From: an uncultured delta proteobacterium
GTDB taxonomy: Bacteria > Desulfobacterota > Desulfomonilia > UBA1062
Assembly (NCBI GenBank): GCA_963752595.1
Contig: CAVVYZ010000004.1
Coordinates: 1-16,004, forward strand
Reading direction: 5' to 3'
Length of the DNA: 16,004 nucleotides
Of this stretch, positions 337 to 15,289 are shown piece after piece (the stretch's first letter is position 1; each line of letters starts with the position of its first letter). The translations under genes and the position numbers were made by a program. The notes beneath the pieces are model-generated. The model had not been told where the DNA came from, searched no databases, and saw only the letters and a list, made by a program, of their open reading frames with translations.

Positions 337-561
337 AAAGGAAATCAAAGGGCCGGAGAAATCCTTGGTGCATACGGGCGGATAAACCAACAACGATGCA
401 CCTTTTGTGTATCCGGATCATCTAAATTTTCATTGATAGAGTATTCGCTCAGTGAGTTCGTCCTGAAGGGCTGTACTTCCGGAAGAACGTTATTTCCGGT
501 CGAATGATACATGCAGCACAACCCATGCCCATGCATGCCTACATACACAAGGATGGTGTCT

Positions 562-994
562 ATGAACGATGAGAAAAGGCCGAACGTACACCTGATCCGT
601 AATCAGGCTGAAACAAAGGAAAGCGACTCGGGAACAATCCTGCTGATCGATGACGAGGAAATCATCCTTTCAAGCCTGCAGAGAGCGCTACAGCGGTCAG
701 GCTATCAGGTGATCACAGTCAAAGACAGCCTGGAGGCTCTCGAGATGTTCCGCAGGGCGCCCGACGAATACGATCTTGTCATAACCGACCAGACAATGCC
801 GCAGATAACGGGTGTGGAGCTGGGGAAGAAATTCATGGAGATACTGTTTCGACATCCCGATCATTCTCTGTACCGGGTTCAGTGACACCATCGGCGAGCA
901 GGAGGTGAAAGATATGGGCTTTCAATCACTCCTGATAAAACCCGCCGGCACAAAAGAGCTGAAAGCGGCTGTCCGGCAGGCGATGCAAGGATGA
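562..994 (+). CDS. Single-domain response regulator (receiver), split by a 1-bp frameshift near 845
   Basis: ILLIDDEE acidic pocket and DLVITDQTMP phosphoacceptor Asp are in ORF 511..885. DIPIILCTGFS and LIKP continue in ORF 812..994. Removing one base from 'atactgtttcgac' restores EIRFDIPIIL. AAGGA precedes ATG 562. Confidence 0.85.
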
Positions 995-1122
995 CACCCG
1001 GGAATAAGCCCCCGGAAGAAACAGAAACCGTGCCCGGTTGAAGGGTATCATTGCCGAGCACCATACGGTCTTGGAGATCAACCGGATGTTGATTTTGATC
1101 TCCTTCAAGCTACCATGTATAT

Positions 1123-2835
1123 ATGGTCTTCAAACCGAGAGACGACATATCCATCGTATTTTCCGGACAGGCAGGCCAGGGTCTGCAGACTTTGGAAGCG
1201 ATCGCCGCCAAGCTGTTCAAACGATCCGGCTACCACGTATTTAGCGACAGCGAATATATGTCCCGCATCCGCGGCGGGAACAATTCCACACAGATACGGG
1301 TATCATCCCGTAGGGTTGCCTCATATACCAGGCGGATAGACATCTTCGTGCCCATGCAGAAAGAGGCAATGCAGCGGTTCCATGACCGTATCACCCATGA
1401 GACCGTGATCCTCGGGGAACGGGCATACATCGAGGAGAGATACTTCGGGGGAGATTATCCCGTGATCGAGGTCCCCTTGAGCGGTCTCTCACAAGAAGCA
1501 GGCGGAGCCGTGTATGCAAACACGATCCTGCTCGGGCTCTTAGCCGCCCTGTTTTACGTAGACAGGCAGCTCATGGAAGAAGAGCTGAAAGCCTTTTTCC
1601 CAAGCCTGGAAGAACAGCGCCTGCAGAAAAACCTCAATGCAGCAGCCATCGGGTACGAGCGGGGTAAAAAGCTTCTGAAGCCCGGACAGGCGGCAATCTC
1701 CATCGAACACTCCGAAGATGTCAAAGGCGAACTCCTGATGGACGGCATCAACGCCGTGGGCCTTGGAGCACTTGCAGTGGGATGCACATTCGTATCCTCG
1801 TATCCCATGTCGCCCTCGACGGGCGTACTGGTATTCTTCACGCAGAAGGCAGAGCGGTCCAGCGTTGTCGTGGAGCAGACAGAAGACGAGATCAGTGCGG
1901 TAAACATGGCCATAGGTTCGTGGTATGCCGGCGGCAGGGCGCTCGTTACCACCTCTGGGGGAGGGTACGCCCTCATGGTGGAAGGCATCAGCCTTGCCGG
2001 GTGCGTGGAATCCCCTCTGGTCGTTCATATCGGCCAGAGGCCCGGACCTGCAACAGGTCTGCCCACGCGGACCGAGCAGGCAGACCTCCTGTTTGTCCTG
2101 CACTCGGGACACGGAGAATTCCCCAGAGCCATCCTCACACCCGGGAGTATGGAGCAGGGTTTTTCGCTCACCAGGCACGCCTTTTACCTTGCCGATAAAT
2201 ACCAGGTGCCGGTGTTCATACTCACGGATCAATTCTTTCTCGAATCGAGATACAACTTCCCGGACATGGAAATCTCCAAGGTATACGACCAGCCTTATAT
2301 GGTCGGACAGGCAAAGATTATCGCCGCTATGCCCTGAGTGAAAGCGGATATCGCCCCGGGGCATACCGGGCTTCGGCAAGGGCAGGGTCCGTGCGACAGC
2401 GACGAGCACGACGAGCAGGGGTTCATCACGGAAGATTTCGGCACGAGAACCGCCATGGTACGGAAAAGACTCATGAAGCTTGACGGACTTCAAAATGAGG
2501 TAATTCCGCCGGTGCTTGTCGGCCCCCGGGACTATAAGAACCTTATCGTATGCTGGGGATCGGCCTACCACCCGGTGAACGAGGCCATGGAGATGCTCGG
2601 CAGGGATGATACGGCATCTTTGCATTTTTCGCAGGTCTACCCCCTGGCCCCGGCGATAACCGGATACCTTGCACAAGCCGGGAAAAAGATCATCGTGGAA
2701 AGCAATGCCACCTCCCAGTTCGGCCGTCTGATCAGGAGCGAGACCGGCATTGATTTCGACCGGAGAATCCTCAAGTTCGACGGGCTCCCTCTCATGCCCG
2801 AAGAGATATACGATGCCCTGAAAGGCGTGCGCTGA
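1123..2835 (+). CDS. korA: 2-oxoacid:ferredoxin oxidoreductase alpha subunit (fused gamma-alpha type), interrupted by three 1-bp deletions at ~2303, ~2347 and ~2392
   Basis: Motifs GQAGQG, EYMSRIRGG, YPMSPST, EQTEDEISA, TTSGGG, QRPGPATGLPT, DSDEHDE, CWGS, IIVESNATSQF and KFDGLP. The intervening frames read TGKDYRRYALSESG and ISPRGIPGFGKG, which fit the family. Substrate specificity cannot be read from the sequence. Confidence 0.9.
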
Positions 2836-2850
2836 AAAAGGAGACCTGCC

Positions 2851-3714
2851 ATGGCTTCTGAATATGATTTCGACCATGAGATCGATATCGCCTGGTGCCG
2901 GGGCTGCGGCAACTTCCATATCCTGGCGTCGCTCAAGGCTGCGCTTTCCGGGCTCGGGCTCGACCCGGATGCCTTGGTGCTCGTATCGGGCATCGGCCAG
3001 GCTGCCAAGACCCCCCAGTATCTGAATGTACATTATTTCAACGGTCTCCATGGCCGGAGCCTCCCCGCAGCCACTGCCATCAAGGCCTCGAACCGGAACC
3101 TGACCGTCATAGCGGAAAGCGGAGACGGAGATACCTACGGGGAGGGGGGCAATCACTTTATTCATACCATCAGGCGTAATCCCGGCATCACGAATATCGT
3201 CCATAACAACATGGTGTACGCCCTTACCAAGGGCCAGGCATCACCCACAACCAGGGAAGGTTTTGTCACCCCGGTACAGCCGCAGGGTGTCACCGAAGAG
3301 ACCTTCAATCCCATGGCTGTAGCTGTTTCGCTCAATGCGCCGTTCGTGGCGCGGGCTTTTGCCGGAGATGAGCAGCAGACCACGGATATCCTGAAAAAGG
3401 CCATCGCGCATAAGGGCTACGCCCTCGTCGATATTTTCCAGCCCTGTGTGACGTATAACAAAGTAAATACCTACCAGTGGTACAAGAACAACACCTATTA
3501 TCTTGACAACAGCCATGATCCGTACAACCGCCAGGCAGCCTTCGGAAAAGCTCTGGAAACCGGGAAATACCCGCTGGGCATTCTCTATATCAATGACGGC
3601 AGGCCCACCTTCGAAGACACACTCGCTGCATACGGGCACGATACCAGGCCGCTGTATGAACGCACCATCGATATCGATGCAATAAAACGTCTCATGGATT
3701 CCATGAGGACATAA
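2851..3714 (+). CDS. korB: 2-oxoacid:ferredoxin oxidoreductase beta subunit (TPP-binding)
   Basis: [19 protein letters not shown], the TPP motif GDGD...[16 protein letters not shown], and [18 protein letters not shown]. Lies 15 bp after the alpha subunit and is intact. Confidence 0.93.
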
Positions 3715-4569: not shown

Positions 4570-5488
4570 ATGAGCGTACTGGATGCAATTGGAAATACCC
4601 CTCTCGTCGAGATGAGGAATATCTGGAATTCCACGGCCACGGGCGTGCGGGTCATGGCCAAGCTGGAAGGCTCAAATCCGGGCGGCTCGGTCAAAGACCG
4701 GCCGGCATATTTCATGCTCAAGGATGCCGTGGCATCAGGAAAGCTGACCCAGGGCAAGGTGATCCTGGAGCCCACATCCGGCAACACCGGCATCGGCATG
4801 GCAATGGTGGCGGCGGCCATGGGCTTCAAAATCAAGCTGACCATGCCCACCTGCGTGAGCACCGAACGGCAGGCAGTTTTGCAGGCCCTCGGTGCGGAGC
4901 TCGAGCTGACCCCGGGCTGCGACCGGACGGACGGTGCCATAAAGAGGGCACACCATATCATGGATTACGACGGCGACCGTTATTTCATGCCCAACCAGTT
5001 CGACAACCCCCACAACTATCTTGCACATTATCAGACCACCGGGCCCGAAATCTTTCAGCAGACAAAAGGCGAGGTCGATGCCTTTGTCGCCGGAATGGGA
5101 ACCACCGGCACGCTCATGGGATGCTCGATGTTCCTCAAGGAAAAACGTCCTTCCGTAAGGATCATCGGGATCGAGCCCACCATGAACCACCGCATCCAGG
5201 GCCTGAAGAACATGCAGGAGGCGATCGTGCCCGAAGATCTATGACCCGTCGCGCCTGGACAGCATTATCAGCTGTTCCGATGAAGATGCTTTCGAGACGA
5301 CGCGCGATCTCTCCATACGCGAAGGCCTGTTCTGCGGGATCAGCTCGGGTGCGGCCATGTGGGGCGCGCTTCAGATCGCCCGCGACCTCTCGCGCGGATC
5401 GACCGTGGTGGTCATCCTGCCCGACCGGGGCGACCGCTACCTTTCCACCGAGGTCTTCCGGTCCTTCTGCGCCATGTGCCCGCCGTGA
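4570..5488 (+). CDS. Cysteine synthase (O-acetylserine sulfhydrylase, CysK/CysM family; PLP fold II), frameshifted near 5233
   Basis: IGNTPLV, KLEGSNPGGSVKDR (PLP Lys), EPTSGNTGIG, NQFDNP and GMGTTGT. After the shift the frame reads KIYDPSRLD...EGLFCGISSGAA...VVILPDRGDRYLSTEVFRSFCAMCPP to TGA at 5486-5488. AAGGAG RBS. Confidence 0.9.
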
Positions 5489-5558
5489 TGCGGCTAGAGG
5501 AGTTCCTTTGATTTGCTTTTTATTAGCAGGCGATTACAATGAACGAAGAGGCTTGTAT

Positions 5559-6232: not shown

Positions 6233-6241
6233 GACTATTTA

Positions 6242-8076
6242 TTACACGAAGAATGATGCCTCGGGGACATCCATTACCGAGGAATCGCCTTCCTTGATGA
6301 CCCTGCAGGATCGTTCCCACCATGGGCAGGATGTTGTGGCAGAAGAACTTTGCAGATGCCACCTTGCCTGCATAGTAGGGATATTCGAAGTGCTCCGCGC
6401 CGAGTTCGTCGATCTTTTTCTGGGCGATCAGCGGCATGCTCGAGCAGGAGCTTCGCGCCGTAGAGGTAGCCGGTGGCATGCAGGATACGGGTGGCATAAA
6501 AGCCGATCATGCCGAACTTGCCCTGGCCGAGGTATCCGGCCATGGTCATCTGGATCTCCTTGTAGTTGTTCAGTGCCTCTTCCAGCAGGGCGAACTGGGC
6601 GCCAACGCGGCATGGGCCTTGTTGTCATGCACGAACTTCTCGATCTCGGCAAGCCATGCGGCGAAGACCTGGCCTCCGGCCATCATCCACTTGCGGCCGA
6701 TGAGGTCCATGGACTGGATGTAGTTGGTGCCTTCCCAGATGGGATAGATCCGGCAGTCGCGGAGCTGCTGGGCAATGGGGTACTCTTCGGAGAAGCCGTA
6801 GCCGCCGTAGCACTGCATGGCTTCGGAGATGCGAAAGGAATGCCATGTCCGAGCACCAGGCTTTGAGGATCGGGGTATTGACCTCGATGAAGCCCTTGGC
6901 CCAGCTTCGTTCAGTCCTCGTCCGTGGTGTTCTCCGCGATGTCCATGGCATAGTAGGAGCACGGCGATCATGGCGCGGGAGGCCTCGGTGATGGACTTCT
7001 GGAACATCAGCATGCGGCGCACATCTTCATGGTTGATGATGGGCACCCGGCCCGCCTTGGGGTTGGTGAGCTGGCGGCCCTGGATGCGGCCGGCCGCGTA
7101 CATGCAGGCGTTGTTGTAGGCCACCGTTGCCGCGGACATGGCGGCCAGGCCGGTTACCGTGCGCTCCTCGTTCATCATCTGGAACATCTGGGCCATGCCC
7201 TGCGCCTTTGCCGTCCACGGGGGCGTCGCCCAGCAGGTAGCCGCGGCACTTGCCTTCTTCGCCGAAGTTGACGATGGCAGTGGCGGAGCCGCTGATGCCC
7301 ATCTTGTGCTCGATGCCGCCGCAGTTCACATCGTTGAACTCGCCCTTTTCGCCGTTGGCGTCCGGCCAGTACTTGGGCACGACGAACAGGGAGATGCCCT
7401 TGGTGCCCGGGAGGCAGCCCTCGATGCGGGCCAGGGTCAGGTGGATGATGTTCTCGGTGATGTCCTGATCGCCGCCGGTGATGAAGCACTTGGTGCCCAC
7501 GATCTTGTAGACGCCCGGCTCATCGGTGGGGATGGCCTTGGTGGTGATGTCGCCCACGTCGGAGCCGCTGTTGGGCTCGGTGAGGTCCATGGTGCCGGCC
7601 CACTGGCCGCAGAACATCTTGGGCAGGAAAAGATTCTTGACCTTCTCGCTGCCGAAGTCGCGGATCAGACCTGACGAACCGGTGGTGGCCATGGCATAGG
7701 GACCCAGGGCGGCGTTGGCTGCTGCCAGGTACTCGTTGGTGGCGCCCATGACGCACAGCGGCATGGAGCTGGGGTCGGTATGGTCGGCGTTGCTGGAGCC
7801 GAGGCCGTTTTCCTGGATAGCCCAGTAGGCCTTCTTGAAGGACTCGGGCGTAGTGACCTTGCCGTCTTTGTACTTGGCATGGAGGTTGTCGCCGTCATCA
7901 TTGGTGGGCGCTATGGCCTCTTTGGCGATCTTGAGTGCGTTTTCAAGGATGGAGTCGATGTCTTCAACGCTGTAACCGCCTTCGAAACGCCCTGCTTCAA
8001 AGACCTTGGTCATGTCGAGCCATTCTTTCAGGATGAACTTGTGGTCACGGGTGGAATACAGAAAATTGGATGCCAT
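6242..8076 (-). CDS. Long-type (~600 aa) acyl-CoA dehydrogenase with about seven or more frameshifts in its 3' half (6300-7205)
   Basis: GTMDLTEPNSGSDVG, GTKCFITGGD, LARIEG..PGTKGISLFVVPK, IEHKMGISGSAT, MFQMMNEER, IINHEDVRRML, TPILKAWCSD, EAMQCYGGYGFSEEYPIAQQLRDCRIYPIWEGTNYIQSMDL and YYAGKVASAKFF. Ends EGDSSVMDVPEASFFV-TAA (6242-6244). ATG 8076 follows AGGAG. Confidence 0.92.
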
Positions 8077-8482: not shown

Positions 8483-8902
8483 CTATATTTCCTCATTTTG
8501 TGAATGTTCCTTTCCGGGTTCGTTTCCCTGCCAGGGGATCACCGCCCAGGCCAGAAGAAGACCGACCCCGAGGGCGAGTATCGCCCAGGCACGCATGAAG
8601 GTATGCCCTTGAGCAGACCACCAGGTGAGAATTCTGCCGAAGCGTTGTACTCCGAAAAAGGGAGTAACCAGGCCTGATACAAAGGTTGTAATCCCGAAGG
8701 CGCGCAACACCTTGGGTATGCGTGAAGTGATCGCGGAATAGAAAAGGGACGAGCCCATGATCAGCCGCAATGCCGCTGCAGCGTAGAGCCCTTTTTGGCT
8801 TTCGAATTTCCGCGCGAAAGAGAGCAGTTTCAAGGGTGATATGATACCTTGCGCGCCTAAAGCAGTAATAAAGAGACTGATCAAGAAAGCGATACTCTTC
8901 AC
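8483..8902 (-). CDS. Hypothetical ~4-TMS membrane protein
   Basis: 139 aa with four hydrophobic segments. GTG start follows GGAGGTGA. TAG stop. Confidence 0.78.
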   Translation of the reverse strand: MKSIAFLISLFITALGAQGIISPLKLLSFARKFESQKGLYAAAALRLIMGSSLFYSAITSRIPKVLRAFGITTFVSGLVTPFFGVQRFGRILTWWSAQGHTFMRAWAILALGVGLLLAWAVIPWQGNEPGKEHSQNEEI

Positions 8903-9030
8903 CTCTCACCTCCTTAAAACCGATATTTTTACCTTGCCTCTCCGAACCGACCTCTTTGACAGTATGATTGCAGGTGCTGTATATACTATTCTTTTGATTC
9001 GATCAGTTATCAAGTGCATGCGTCCAAAGG

Positions 9031-10803
9031 TTACTTTCCGTAAATCTCTCTTACCCTGCTCCTCAGTACCTTGCCCACCGGACTCATGGGAAAGGAATCT
9101 GCAAACACCACGGACTTCGGCCGCTTGTATCCGGTCATCTTGTCCCTGCTCCAGGCTACGATTTCTTTTTCGGTGGCATCACAGCCGGCTTTAAGAACCA
9201 CAACGGCACGCACGGTGTTGCCCCATGTCTCGTCGGGCACGCCGATGACGCACACCCCGTCGATCTTCTCATGGCCCATGAGGATTTCCTCGATTTCGTG
9301 GGGAAAAACCTTCTCCGCCCCTGTAGATATGCATTCTCCCTTACGGTCTACAATGATAAGCTCACCGTCGGCATCGATGTAGCCAAGGTCGCCGGAGTGG
9401 AACCAGCCATCCTTGATCACCTCGGAGGTTTTCTCCGTATCACCGTAATATCCTTTCATGATCGTGCCGCTCTGATAGAATATCTCACCGGTTTCTCCTG
9501 CAGCCGCATCCTCTCCTTTTTCATTTACGATGCGCATTTTTATGCCTGACAGGGGACGCCCCACGGATTTGTTCTTGATCGTGTCGGCTGATGCATCGAT
9601 TCTGATCGTCGTATCAGGCGTCATCTCGGTCTGCCCGAATACGTCCACCACGAGGGAGTTGGGGAACTTTTCCAGGATCTGCTTCTTGCGGTGCGCAGGA
9701 TTTGCCCCGGCGCCGGTCATAGCCACGAGAACCGACGTACGGTCATATCGGTCGATGTCCGGGTAATCCAGGATCATTTTCCACTGGGTCGGCACGAGCA
9801 GGAGTACCATGGGCTTTTCCCGGGCTATGGCCTCCAGCACTTCCTGCGGCTCGAAATGGATGCCTTCACGGAGCATGAAACTGACGATCCCGGACATGGG
9901 CCCAATAATGAGAAGCTGATAATTGGCCATATGGAACAGCGGCATGTTCATGAAAATCGACAGGCCGCCGGTGATCCGGCCGAGGACCGGACCGACTGCT
10001 CTGCCCGTTGTCTGAGAGAGCAGGGACGGCAGGGCTTGAGACATGAACGATCGGATTTTCGCAGATCGCATGAGTCTGTTTAAAGGCCGTTCGCATCCCG
10101 GCATATGAACGAGCCCGGCTACTATCCTGCCGAAGTTCACCTTCTCGTCGGATGCGAGCCTGCCTATCAGATCGCCGAAGAGCGACCCTGCGAGGTTCCA
10201 GAAGTTGGAGTAGGTCAGGACCACTCCCTTGGGCAGCCCCGTAGTGCCGCCGGTGTAGCATATAGTGCATACATCTTCCTCTGTAGTGCAGGCAGGAGGC
10301 TCTGTTGCCGGATGCGATGCAATCAGTTCTTCATAGTCGAGCATACCTGCCGGTACCTTGCCCCCATCCCGGGTGAGGCAGATGGTGTGCACGATTTTAT
10401 TGGCATTCCCGATTGCCTTGGACGCCTCTTCAAAGAACAGATCCTCCAGGACAAGGACCGTCGAGTCGGAATGAGTGAGCTGGTATTCGATCTCCCGTGT
10501 AACGAACCTGAAATTGATGGGTATGGGCACTGCTCCGAGCTTCTGGAGTGCATAGTTGGCCTCGATGAATTCCGGACAGTCGTGAAACAGGATGGAAACA
10601 TGGTCTCCCTTCTTCACGCCAAGAGCTTTAAGGGCATTGGCGAGTCTGTTCACCCTGGTGTTGAGATCTCTCCAGGTAATGTGAGCCTCCCCGCAGGTTA
10701 TGGCGATGCCCCCGGGGTTGAACCGGGACATACCGGCAAGGAGTTCGCCAAAACTTTTCCGACCGGATTGATTCTGAGTACTGCGATTCTTTACCAATGG
10801 CAT
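9031..10803 (-). CDS. Acyl-CoA synthetase / AMP-forming acid-CoA ligase (class I adenylate-forming, FadD-like)
   Basis: YTGGTTGLPKG (A3), MPLFH (A4), FGQTE (A5), GYY, GWFHSGDLG (A7), DRKGECISTGAEKVFPHEIE (A8) and PMSPVGKV (A10). ATG 10803 follows GAGAGG. Intact. Confidence 0.93.
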   Translation of the reverse strand: MPLVKNRSTQNQSGRKSFGELLAGMSRFNPGGIAITCGEAHITWRDLNTRVNRLANALKALGVKKGDHVSILFHDCPEFIEANYALQKLGAVPIPINFRFVTREIEYQLTHSDSTVLVLEDLFFEEASKAIGNANKIVHTICLTRDGGKVPAGMLDYEELIASHPATEPPACTTEEDVCTICYTGGTTGLPKGVVLTYSNFWNLAGSLFGDLIGRLASDEKVNFGRIVAGLVHMPGCERPLNRLMRSAKIRSFMSQALPSLLSQTTGRAVGPVLGRITGGLSIFMNMPLFHMANYQLLIIGPMSGIVSFMLREGIHFEPQEVLEAIAREKPMVLLLVPTQWKMILDYPDIDRYDRTSVLVAMTGAGANPAHRKKQILEKFPNSLVVDVFGQTEMTPDTTIRIDASADTIKNKSVGRPLSGIKMRIVNEKGEDAAAGETGEIFYQSGTIMKGYYGDTEKTSEVIKDGWFHSGDLGYIDADGELIIVDRKGECISTGAEKVFPHEIEEILMGHEKIDGVCVIGVPDETWGNTVRAVVVLKAGCDATEKEIVAWSRDKMTGYKRPKSVVFADSFPMSPVGKVLRSRVREIYGK

Positions 10804-10875
10804 ACCGGAACCTCTCATATATTATCAAATTAAATTACCGGGAGTTGCACCCGGCATCTATTGTCTTACCATATG

Positions 10876-10904
10876 ACAATACAATATTCCCTGCATGAGT
10901 TCAA
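10876..10904 (-). promoter_or_regulatory. Candidate sigma-70 promoter for the acyl-CoA ligase
   Basis: Minus strand TTGAAC (10904-10899), 17 bp spacer, TATTGT (10881-10876). Each hexamer is only a 4/6 match. Confidence 0.4.
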
Positions 10905-10989
10905 TGATAATTAGGGGTTAGGTACAAAATAAGGTTATCATGGAGAAGGTCCGGGGTTACTCTGCATCTCCTCCAAAAGCCGGGCCGGC

Positions 10990-11928
10990 TCATGGCAAGA
11001 CCGGGTCATCTGATCCTGATCGTTTCAGGGGGAGATGCGTTGCCAGAGTACTGAAAAGCAGCGGATATACAGCCCCGGCCCAGAGAATGACGAGAAAATA
11101 TCGCACCGTATACGCTGCCGGATGATCTTGCAGCAGGGTGGCGATAGGTGCTTTCAGCAGGATGAGGAGGGCAACGGTACTGCCCAAGCCGAAAGCGTAT
11201 TTGACTGCCTGCCACCACCAGGGCCCCCGGATGTCATACCTGATGTAACGCTCATCCAGCAGCCAGACCAGGATCATTGCCGACATCGCACCACCCGCCT
11301 TGGAAGCATTTTCCAGGTATCTCACGGACACATTATCACCTGATGTGAGGAACCATGCATGCAGGAGCATGAACGCGGCAACCCCCAGCCCGAACATCCG
11401 GGAAGCGGGCTTGACCCACGGGTGGACCTGCATCGATTCGAACAGCCAGGCTGTCAGCAGAACCACCACCAGCCCGACTGCCAGCGATGCTGCGACATCC
11501 GCCGGAGTATGCACGCCGAGATACATGCGGGAAAAGCCTACCAGCAGCACCGCTGTGATACCCATGACAGTTACCCATATTTTGCGGGAAGCAACAGCAA
11601 GCGAGCCGAAGAGACCGGCTGCGGATTGCGTATGCCCGCTCGGGAACGAGTACCCGGCGGCCTTTTCAACAGCACGTCCCACAGGATTGATGGCAGGGTT
11701 GATCACCCATGGCCGCGGGATGCAGAAAATGTTCTTCAGGATCTGGTTGGTACAGGCTCCCAGCATGAAGGTGTAAAACATGAAGTAGCCTACCTTCTTG
11801 TTCAGGCACCAGAGAAAAAGCAGCACAATCGCAGTGAAGAAGGTTTCATCGCCCAAGAGCGTTATCGCCAGGAAGATGTTGTCCAGAAAAGGGGTCCTGA
11901 TTTCTTTGAGCATCAGCAGAAAATTCAT
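10990..11928 (-). CDS. PAP2-family membrane phosphatase
   Basis: C1 KNIFCIPRP, C2 FPSGH and C3 SRMYLGVHTPADV, plus multiple TM helices. ATG 11928 follows GGGGGAA and is preferred over 12006. Confidence 0.9.
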   Translation of the reverse strand: MNFLLMLKEIRTPFLDNIFLAITLLGDETFFTAIVLLFLWCLNKKVGYFMFYTFMLGACTNQILKNIFCIPRPWVINPAINPVGRAVEKAAGYSFPSGHTQSAAGLFGSLAVASRKIWVTVMGITAVLLVGFSRMYLGVHTPADVAASLAVGLVVVLLTAWLFESMQVHPWVKPASRMFGLGVAAFMLLHAWFLTSGDNVSVRYLENASKAGGAMSAMILVWLLDERYIRYDIRGPWWWQAVKYAFGLGSTVALLILLKAPIATLLQDHPAAYTVRYFLVILWAGAVYPLLFSTLATHLPLKRSGSDDPVLP

Positions 11929-12180
11929 AAAAGTGTATTCCCCCCGTTCAATCGGCTTGATTCTTTTTACCGGATGCAAGATTTCGCCATTTGTCGAAGA
12001 CGGCAACTCCTTCAGATTGATTGAAGCTTAAGCCAGGATTTGCAGGAAATATCAAGAACAATGGTTTCCCGAAGGCGATAGAAAGGACGATTGATATTCA
12101 GAGGACTTTACAATCGGATAAGAAATCCCACCAATTAGTTAATAGGAGGTAAACTTTCACAATGATAAAAGAAATAGTAT

Positions 12181-13907
12181 ATGGCTTCGCCTGCAGTAAC
12201 TATCCGTGAGCTATCGAAAGTCTATGTGGTAAGCGAGCGTGAAGCCGGCGTGGCGGCTTCTTTCAAGAGCCCCGTTCACCGGCATATGAAGAAAATCCCG
12301 GCAGTGGACGGCATCACGTTCGACCTGGCCTCCGGTGAGATCGTGGGTTTCCTGGGCCCGAACGGCGCGGGCAAGACCACCACGCTCAAGATGCTCTCGG
12401 GGCTGCTGCATCCGACGGCAGGCGAAGTGGCCGTGCTCGGCTTTGTTCCGTGGAAGCGCGACAGGGAATACTTACGACGGATCACCCTGGTCATGGGGCA
12501 GCGCAACCAGCTGATCTGGGATATCCCGCCCCAGGAAACATTCGAGCTGAACAGGGCCATATACAGCATCCCCATTGAAGACTATCGCCGGATGCTTACC
12601 GAGCTGACCGATCTCCTCGACCTGGGGCCGCTCTTGCGGAAACCGGTGCGCAATCTGTCCCTGGGCGAACGGATGAAGTGCGAGATCGCAGCAGCCCTCC
12701 TGCACCGGCCGCGCGTGGTATTCCTCGACGAGCCCACCATAGGGCTCGACGTGACCATGCAGCGGCGTATCCGCACCTTCATTGCCGAGTACAATCCCTT
12801 CCGGCATGTGGTATTCGGTGTTATTCAGGATGTCACCGAGCACAAACGGGCTGAAGAAAATCTGCGCAGAAGCGAGGAAAGATACCGGGTCATCCTCGGT
12901 AACATGGAGGAAGCATACTACGAACTGGACATCCACGGAAACATGACGTTCTTCAGCGCCATTACCCTGAAGGCCCTCGGCTATGCCAATGAAGAGATGC
13001 AGGGCATGAACTTCAGCCAGTATGTGGATCCCGGGTGCAAGCAGTACGTGATCGATGTATTCAGCAAGATCTTCCTGACCGGTGAAACAATCAAGGGTTT
13101 CGAATGGCTGATCGTCGGGAAAGATGGGAGGAGAATACCCGTAGAGACGTCCGCATCCCTCGTGCGGGACTCGGACGGCAATCCGGTAGGGTTCAGGGGC
13201 GTAACGCGTGATGTCTCACCTGGCTGAAGGAAGCCGAAGAGGCCCTGCACCGGAGCGAAGAGCGATACCGCACGATCTTCGAGAATACGGGCACAGCCAC
13301 CGTGCTCAGCGCAGAGGATACGACCATCCTGCTCGCCAATTCCAATTTCGAGGAACTCACCGGGTATACCAAAGAGGACATGGAAGGCCATATGAGCTGG
13401 ACATCCTTTATCAGCGATACCGATCTGGAACGCATGAAGAAATACCATATGCAGCGCAGGCATGAAGGCGGGGCCGCACCGGAATCCTATGAAGCCAAGT
13501 GCAAGAACCGCAGCGGGGAGTTCAGAGACATGTTTCTCACCGTGGCCATGATACCCGGCACCAAAGAAAGCGTAATTTCCTGCCTTGATATGACCGATCA
13601 TAAGTCTGCTGAGGAAGAAATGAGGAAGAGGGAGAAACTTCAGGGCATGCTCGAGATGGCGGGTGCCGTTTGCCACGAATTGAGTCAGCCTCTCCAGGTA
13701 TTGATGTCTTCCATTGATCTTCTCGCGACGGATGCACACGCGGACGAGCTTGACAATGAGCTGCCGGAGTAGGTCCAGACAGGAATCGAACGGATCGGTA
13801 CACTTACGCATAAGATCATGAAGATCACTGAATACGAGGTTAAAGACTATATGGGAGGGAAGAGCAAGATCATCGATATCGATCGCTCTTCCTCCGTGGA
13901 TTTGTGA
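12181..13907 (+). CDS. Chimeric gene: truncated ABC ATPase + PAC tail + PAS + PAS + HisKA-like domain without HATPase; frameshift at ~13216 and in-frame TAG at 13770-13772
   Basis: aa 1-205 carry Walker A GPNGAGKT, Q-loop MGQ, signature LSLGE and Walker B/D-loop VVFLDEPTIGLD. From ~12796 the same frame reads FGVIQDVTEHKRAEENLRRSEERYR and then a PAS (…VETSASLVRDSDGNPVGFRGVTRDV). After the shift come EALHRSEERYRTIFENTG (second PAS), the H-box AGAVCHELSQPLQ, TAG, and then VQTGIERIGTLTHKIMKITEYEVKDY…KIIDIDRSSSVDL-TGA. Confidence 0.75.
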
Positions 13908-13929
13908 CATTGTCGAAGGAGGTAGGTGT

Positions 13930-14316
13930 ATGGATGAGAATAGAATTCTGGTAGTGGATGATCAGCCGGTCATCAGGGAAATGTTCAAACGGTCGTTCGA
14001 GCGTGCAGGTTATGCGGTCGTGACGGCCCAGAGTGCGGAAGAGGCCCTTGAGATCCTTCCGAAATCGCCCTGCAATGTACTCTTCCTGGATCTCGACCTG
14101 CCGGGAATGGACGGGATCGAGCTTTGCCGGAGGATCAGAAAGGAATGGCCTATGGCTATCCCGTATGCCGTGACAGGCTATACGACCCTCTACCAGCTCA
14201 TGGAATGCAGAGAGGCCGGCTTTGAAGACTATTTTCCCAAACCGGCGAAGATGGCAGACCTGAAAAAGGCCGCAGAACATGCTTTTGAAAAGCTCGAACG
14301 CTGGAAGCAAAGATAA
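13930..14316 (+). CDS. Single-domain response regulator (CheY-like receiver)
   Basis: ILVVDDQ, LFLDLDLPGMDG, AVTG and FPKP. AGGAGG RBS. Starts 22 bp after the HisKA gene stop. Confidence 0.92.
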   Translation: MDENRILVVDDQPVIREMFKRSFERAGYAVVTAQSAEEALEILPKSPCNVLFLDLDLPGMDGIELCRRIRKEWPMAIPYAVTGYTTLYQLMECREAGFEDYFPKPAKMADLKKAAEHAFEKLERWKQR

Positions 14317-14439
14317 GATTCGATCATCTGTTTATGGCCTTTCATCGGCTTCATCACGTTCAGAGATTCCTCAAGAATATTTTCAAAACACCGAAATATT
14401 ACGTATGCACAAACACGAGGACTATACAGGCCAAGAATT

Positions 14440-14820
14440 ATGAAATGGAACATCCTGATCGTAGATGATTCAAATGTAGTCAAGGCTGTCCTGATCAAAT
14501 CTTTGACAGAAAGCGGGGCACCCATCAACAAGATATTCGATGCTTCGAACGGCAAGGATGCCCTCACCATCCTCAAATCATCAAAGATCGACATCCTGTT
14601 CGCCGACATCAATATGCCGGTGATGAACGGAATAGAACTTGTGGAAAACATCTCACAAGATCCGGATCTCAGAGGGATCCCGATCATCATCATCTCCACG
14701 GACGGCAGCACGAACCGCATGGATTATCTCAAAGAAAACGGCGTCAGGGCGTATGTCCGCAAGCCTTTTACCCCTGAGCAGATCCGTACCGTAGTGAAAG
14801 AGGTTATGCTTGGAAGATGA
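14440..14820 (+). CDS. Single-domain response regulator, CheY-like
   Basis: ILIVDDS, ASNGKDAL, FADINMPVMNG, IIISTDG and YVRKPFTPE. Overlaps the cheX-like gene. Confidence 0.92.
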   Translation: MKWNILIVDDSNVVKAVLIKSLTESGAPINKIFDASNGKDALTILKSSKIDILFADINMPVMNGIELVENISQDPDLRGIPIIIISTDGSTNRMDYLKENGVRAYVRKPFTPEQIRTVVKEVMLGR

Positions 14821-15289
14821 AAGAAACCTCTCCAGACAGGCCATGGAACAGGCCGTCATCTCGGTCGTTGCGGCAATGACGGGAATGTCTGCCGAGGTAA
14901 TCGAGGCCCGGGATATTCCTCCTTTTGAAATCCCGCTGATCAATGCCCGCATAGCATACAGCGGACCCTATTCCGGCGATCTGGGGCTTATGATCGAGCA
15001 GCCCCTTGCTGAGTTGATCGGAATGCACATGCTCGGGTTCGGACCGGGCGAACACCTCATCCAGGACATGATCGATGATGCGGTAAAGGAATTGCTCAAT
15101 GTGGTCTGCGGCCGGTTCCTCACGTTGATGTTCGGAAGCAAGCCGGTTTTTTCATTGAATATCCCCCAGGCCTTTCCCCTTGGCGCCCAGGTGTGCAATG
15201 CCCTCGTCCAAAACTCGCCACTCCTTGCTTTCCGGGTCGAAGGGTATACCATCATCGGCAATGTTCGAATGAAGAAAAGCGGGGAATAG
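14810..15289 (+). CDS. cheX: CheX-like CheY-P phosphatase
   Basis: ARIAYSGPYSGDLGL and DDAVKELLNVVCG (ExxN catalytic motif), FSLNIP, ~155 aa. TTG start follows AGAGG and overlaps the CheY-like gene by 11 bp. Confidence 0.82.
   Translation: MEDERNLSRQAMEQAVISVVAAMTGMSAEVIEARDIPPFEIPLINARIAYSGPYSGDLGLMIEQPLAELIGMHMLGFGPGEHLIQDMIDDAVKELLNVVCGRFLTLMFGSKPVFSLNIPQAFPLGAQVCNALVQNSPLLAFRVEGYTIIGNVRMKKSGE

Follow-up and report, generated by a model that had tools for sequence, protein, structure and literature searches.

An in-frame ABC-PAS fusion in a delta proteobacterial assembly is a singleton that unites parts of two ordinary genes

Does an open reading frame that runs without a stop from an ABC ATPase into a PAS protein represent a new signalling architecture, or two ordinary genes that have been joined? 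The question is raised by the window analysed here, a stretch of 16,004 nucleotides that makes up the whole of contig C4 in an assembly (GCA_963752595.1, referred to as G000; 31 contigs, 84% complete, 6.8% contamination) of an uncultured delta proteobacterium. The ORF at 12181-13227 encodes 348 amino acids, with a Pfam ABC_tran match at residues 43-186 followed by a PAS match at residues 233-345. The original prediction, made from the DNA letters, had offered three readings of this frame: a new nucleotide-sensing input on a phosphotransfer or phosphatase protein, a recombination scar of foreign DNA, or a chimeric assembly.

The left anchor of the locus is a PAP2 phosphatase gene (10990-11928, minus strand, Pfam PAP2), part of a block (8509-11930) that matches the congener G004 at 80%. 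The PAP2 protein agrees with P0225 at 311 of 312 residues. Beyond three close relatives, its next matches are at most 47% identical, with the taxon-named ones belonging to Clostridia/Bacillota; the gene was likely transferred into this small clade. It is followed by a spacer without a G004 match (11930-12180), in which an AGGAGGT at 12144-12150 precedes an ATG at 12162. This ATG is offset by a single base from the frame of the ABC ORF, possibly through an indel error, and a promoter scan of 11900-12300 found nothing. The ABC part comprises 205 codons (12181-12795) and, like the parts described below as far as CheX, is read on the plus strand. From 12796 to 12876 the frame encodes the orphan last strand of a first PAS/PAC domain and its linker helix, corresponding to residues 149 onward of a 517-aa ortholog. 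It then enters a PAS domain (12877-13215; residues 233-345), equivalent to the second PAS of that ortholog, and is shifted by a 2-base insertion relative to G004 (at about 13213-13216). A further PAS domain (13251-13619, TIGR00229), the ortholog's third, and a HisKA-like (DHp) tail (13653-13907) complete the gene; the His of the tail lies at 13674-13676 and the protein ends 77 residues past it. The tail is interrupted by a TAG at 13770-13772, where G004 has TCG. The assembled frame of 348 aa thus stops upstream of the H-box, and reading through both lesions gives 574 aa. This agrees with the predicted in-frame run through a PAC strand, two PAS domains and an H-box, with two lesions and about 575 residues after repair. 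Two stand-alone receivers (13930-14316 and 14440-14820) and a CheX-family phosphatase (14810-15289) follow, all assigned by Pfam and syntenic in G004.

The ABC half is the front part of an ordinary ABC-2 type ATPase, as judged from Pfam, its motifs and its homologs. Its best NCBIfam match is DrrA, with a score below the cut-off of that model, and full-length ATPases from the same bacterial family, one of them NCBI-labelled Desulfomonilia, share 82-84% identity with residues 1-205; a word-index search of proteins of 191-609 aa found no ABC protein above 84% identity. Walker A, the Q-loop, the signature, Walker B and the D-loop are retained. The H-loop His, which touches the gamma-phosphate, the Walker B Glu and the D-loop (PMC3971661), is missing, together with the last three core strands and about 121 C-terminal residues of the 326-328 aa homologs. 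As predicted, its last residues are RTFIAEYN (12795), and the H-loop strand would have come next. The H-loop continuation is present in 84 of the 84 homolog loci read and the window alone differs (85 loci including the window; 82 scored, of which 81 continue and the window does not, and three minus-strand loci checked separately and found normal; L019 and L023 are apparently one locus). At these 84 loci, the first permease is found within the fetched flank in 74 and both permeases in 69; PAP2 lies beside the ATPase in none, and a distant, separate PAS gene occurs in one. Within the family, the ATPase is carried by four of 51 genomes (82-84% identity in three, 77% in one) and by none of the 11 congeners. 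PF06182 permeases occur in exactly these four genomes, and G000 is the only member of the family with an ATPase half and no permease. Profile searches for PF06182 permeases were negative for the window and for the 84%-complete G000 as a whole, and agree with the original prediction that the window holds neither an ABC permease nor an HATPase_c domain; tblastn of G000 with the ATPase C-terminus and both permeases found no ortholog. With the H-loop, the C-terminal core strands and the permeases missing, the window product is evidently not a functional ABC-2 ATPase.

A tree of 55 rows places the ABC half in an eight-row set with the ATPases of the host family (support 96/83, with the bootstrap not fully settled). 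Its GC content is 60.7%, compared with 56.7-61.5% in five homologs, and 7% of the 1237 long ORFs of G000 match it in GC richness; the PAS part has 52-54% GC and its G004 counterpart 54-55%. The drop in GC across the junction, counted by hand in the original prediction, is exact (40, 40, 30 and 30 of 60), but the step reflects the GC of the two gene families and not their origin. A distant foreign origin of the ABC half, considered from this step, was rejected, each half showing the GC of its own orthologs. Since the ABC half groups with the ATPases of the host family and equals its homologs in GC, it is not distant foreign DNA; of the predicted scar of foreign DNA, the scar can be kept but the foreign origin cannot.

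The PAS half has intact orthologs. At the syntenic locus, G004 carries an undamaged 517-aa TM-PAS-PAS-PAS-HisKA-like gene, and the window matches G004 at 80-83% over 8509-11930 and 12780-15280. The two syntenic blocks are separated by 727 bp in G004, which include the start of the 517-aa gene, versus 849 bp in the window. The orthologs P0002 and P0003 have the same TM-PAS-PAS-PAS-HisKA-like build, with a longer N-terminus than the PAS part of the window. P0002 shares 139 of 145 and 212 of 226 residues with the window (94-96%), versus 84% for the G004 protein. Records of the receivers and CheX at 96-99% identity lie on an 8540 bp contig, and the contig of P0002 is likewise 8540 bp long. Searches of G000 by tblastn with the PAS N-terminus and by blastn with the 727-bp stretch of G004 found no ortholog. 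The missing HATPase_c domain, previously counted as part of the oddity, turns out to be native to this protein family, since the intact orthologs (P0002, P0003 and P0004/G004) also lack it; they score 23.8-26.2 bits against HisKA, for which the cut-off is 26.9. Having an H-box His and no HATPase_c, the window product is evidently not a histidine kinase, and we infer that the native 517-aa protein is anchored in the membrane and serves the two receivers as a phosphotransfer or phosphatase partner.

A 71-aa query from the tail matched mainly via its PAC part and found a short, HATPase-less tail in five of 24 loci; among the other loci, 11 of the 12 inspected encode ordinary kinases that extend 227-251 aa past the His. 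Short tails (77-82 aa past the His) are also present in G042 (three loci) and G065. The HATPase-less HisKA-like proteins at L002:2875-4428, L200, L201, L218 and L221 all end 77-82 residues past the His with a tail of the Y-x-G-x(2-3)-K-x-I-x-D-I type, and the gene in G004 adjoins two receivers and CheX. Such short-tailed proteins possibly constitute a phosphotransfer or phosphatase module, and a literature search found no paper describing one.

The two halves of the window gene meet in a tract that is common to both parent genes. The ABC homologs read RTFIAEYN-RRFGATVLLTSH and the PAS orthologs DIHGIAEYD-PFRHVVF, and the window reads RTFIAEYN-PFRHVVF. The predicted join is present, but it is not a blunt junction at 12795/12796: ABC homologs match up to 12794 and the PAS gene of G004 matches from 12780, leaving an overlap at 12780-12795 in which 12 of 16 bases are identical to the latter gene and which encodes the shared five-codon tract IAEY[N/D]. 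Both partners are cut inside a domain and not at domain boundaries, the ATPase before its H-loop and the PAS protein within its first PAS/PAC domain, as had been noted. Comparison of the ABC gene with the PAS gene gives 92 windows of 16 bases in which 12 or more match, and 70 of them share the codon phase; these windows overlap and hence are non-independent. Since similar tracts are mostly in the same codon phase, the open frame across the join is no sign of selection. The junction tract is not the strongest available, as 11 windows score 13-14.

The fusion protein forms a one-member, one-contig cluster. Among 122 genomes of the class, an 80-aa junction query was covered end to end by G000 only, and none of 516 retrieved proteins contains both halves. 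In a word search with the junction region, which covered proteins of 191-609 aa, both domains occur in the window only among the 120 matches listed out of 7999. The best 150 of 1.84 billion representatives include no other fusion, the remaining 149 being 145 PAS-only and four ABC-only proteins, in a list so crowded by multi-PAS proteins that a distant fusion could rank below it. At the DNA level, a degenerate junction pattern gave four matches among 221 loci, all of them copies of the window. In scans of metagenome contigs that possibly omit near-identical records, the exact 36-base junction pattern gave no match, and P0002, used to look for conspecific DNA, gave two distant loci only (25-30%). 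A search of mainly open-access literature found no description of an ABC-PAS-HisKA protein. As a singleton that is cut mid-domain on both sides, it is not a conserved fusion. The predicted nucleotide-sensing input is contradicted by the same comparisons, in which the fusion occurs only in this assembly and the multi-PAS proteins of relatives have a longer N-terminus with TM and PAS segments. Taken together, the sequence comparisons show a one-off union of two ordinary genes and not a new signalling system.

The quality of the assembly bears on how this join came about. Positions 1-5551 of C4 duplicate positions 1-5546 of contig C26 at 96.7% identity; the alignment contains 151 mismatches and opens 26 gaps, and genes interrupted in one copy are uninterrupted in the other. 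When G004 is used to arbitrate over 394-3714, there are 33 differing columns; the odd copy is C4 in 17 and C26 in 10, with six ambiguous. Identity falls to ~90% in the last 1.2 kb of the overlap, where many of the substitutions are spaced by three bases, as though this part came from another strain. Twelve C4 genes contain 22 non-triplet indels relative to G004 in 11 kb, some of which are compensating pairs or end noise; since the two lesions of the PAS part fit this background, they are likely to be background sequence errors. Frameshifted genes of the window include those at 535-991, 1123-2835, 4570-5500 and 6240-8076, which we take to encode, in this order, a receiver, a 2-oxoacid oxidoreductase alpha-like, a cysteine synthase-like and an acyl-CoA dehydrogenase-like protein; the first two are whole in the C26 copy. 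The end of C4 (16004; last gene HAD-family) runs in frame into position 5394 of contig C8, as in G004. Positions 1-5393 of C8 consist of 68%-GC DNA (aldose epimerase, FGGY kinase), cut mid-gene and without a match in 25 relatives, and C8:5393-5394 evidently is a chimeric join in the assembly. Likewise, the end of C26 runs into position 4096 of contig C22 (GNAT domain; L162), the head of which is unrelated and contains an AlkB-like gene cut at the join and PolX/PHP.

Deletions relative to G004 are found elsewhere in G000 too. When 1.19 Mb is compared with 1.56 Mb of G004, clean gaps whose two ends lie within genes of the other genome account for six of 39 in G000 and one of 50 in the reverse direction, an asymmetry that depends on a single reference at ~83% identity and on a reverse count made less sensitive by broken G000 ORFs. 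At G000:C13:49476-49524, ~1.27 kb of G004 sequence has given way to a mosaic of 47 bases, put together from fragments of the absent sequence, in which each of the three jumps falls on a short shared tract. Other mid-gene deletions are located at C9:56496, 74344, 75567 and 237280 and at C3:10520, the largest measuring 1.54 kb and lying in a hybrid kinase. Haplotype mosaics, subpopulation mosaics between conserved flanks and chimeras are known errors of long-read assembly (10.1101/2025.04.22.649783).

The singleton join and the assembly faults support the predicted alternative of a chimeric assembly, and the fusion is probably an assembly-made deletion or haplotype mosaic that joins two ordinary genes. 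The parent genes, which relatives carry intact, encode an ABC-2 ATPase and a HisKA-like protein with a membrane anchor and three PAS domains, and they are joined at the common five-codon tract. An ATPase-permease-permease operon would have been situated between the PAP2 and PAS genes, in the organism or in one of its subpopulations, and a low-quality consensus would have jumped out of the ATPase gene to a point inside the PAS gene. Such a skip would drop at least ~2.7 kb, comprising the 3' part of the ATPase, two permeases, the promoter, the TM helix and the first PAS, and the open frame is a consequence of the shared codon phase. Several observations speak against an assembly-made join. The conserved gene order on either side, a left boundary that lies between genes and the undamaged start of the ABC gene suggest that this gene is really located here. 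The clear chimeric joins at C8 and C22 share just 1-2 bases, unlike the present one. An ABC operon at this locus was seen in no relative, and the ABC proteins found reach at most 84% identity, so that the deleted operon is a reconstruction.

Less likely, although a serious possibility, is a real recent deletion in the strain between imperfect direct repeats, by which the transporter and the membrane anchor would have been lost and a non-functional hybrid remnant left behind. One event would then explain the locus, and the intact ABC start and ribosome-binding site, the intergenic left boundary, the synteny on both sides and the clustering of the ABC half with the ATPases of the host family (96/83) are all compatible with it. 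Short-homology rearrangements arise in living bacteria, and a junction homology of 4-15 bp is known in E. coli (PMC1428787). However, the clear assembly faults in the contig and its neighbours count against a real deletion, as does a junction that lacks an independent record, with the reservation that one scan may omit the records of this or very close genomes.

It is very unlikely that the ABC piece and the spacer are a patch that came from a same-family organism present in the sample and was set into a G004-like locus through two chimeric joins. The absence of the ATPase from all 11 congeners, the foreign DNA joined mid-gene at C8 and C22, and the length of 849 bp, which is near the 727 bp of G004 at the same place, would be in line with such a patch, but a pair of joins no more than 850 bp apart would have to lead back to the same locus, and the left one would be forced into the short spacer.

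The predicted fold bears on whether the joined protein could function. AlphaFold2 gave the window fusion a mean pLDDT of 58.9, with residues 206-224 below 50 and the orphan PAC strand not placed as a strand, and gave an intact homolog of similar alignment depth 74.9, with strands 211-215, 228-233 and 236-242 formed. The comparison is a weak one, residues 206-237 having no aligned rows and the P-loop region being low in both models, and it hints that the orphan PAC strand does not replace the three lost ABC core strands. A real, expressed and selected fusion, whose H-loop-less ATPase would bind nucleotide or dimerise and control a PAS-PAS-DHp protein serving two receivers, is hardly credible, and so is a new chimera that would have exchanged its anchor and first PAS for a nucleotide-binding input through one microhomology deletion: the frame is open across the join and Walker A/B, the signature and the D-loop are retained, but the fusion is a singleton, three core strands are gone with no replacement in the weak AlphaFold2 test, and the assembled frame terminates ahead of the H-box.

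The locus is a useful warning that an in-frame "novel architecture" is easily produced by joining coding sequences at a short common tract. Protein collections already list the fusion as an ABC+PAS record of 348 aa, and other fusions called from this assembly call for the same scrutiny. Were the join borne out by reads and its product active, the locus would represent a signalling chimera at birth, a new architecture from one microhomology deletion.

Compared with known systems, the fusion locus resembles three. It shares residues 1-205, at 82-84% identity, with ABC-2 type (DrrA/NatA-like) ATPases that work with two ABC2_membrane_6 (PF06182) permeases, but it lacks the H-loop, ~121 C-terminal residues and both permeases of such a system. 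Compared with the TM-PAS-PAS-PAS-HisKA-like proteins (P0002, P0003 and P0004/G004), it keeps residues 206 onward, the short tail and the downstream genes, whereas its ABC piece stands in place of 143 aa that include the TM helix and the greater part of the first PAS, and its gene has two lesions. Finally, it resembles haplotype-mosaic or chimeric contigs (10.1101/2025.04.22.649783) in the conserved flanks around a variable stretch containing part of an alternative sequence and in the presence of other chimeric joins in the assembly; that paper defines such contigs by read clipping, whereas the present case is known from the assembled sequence.
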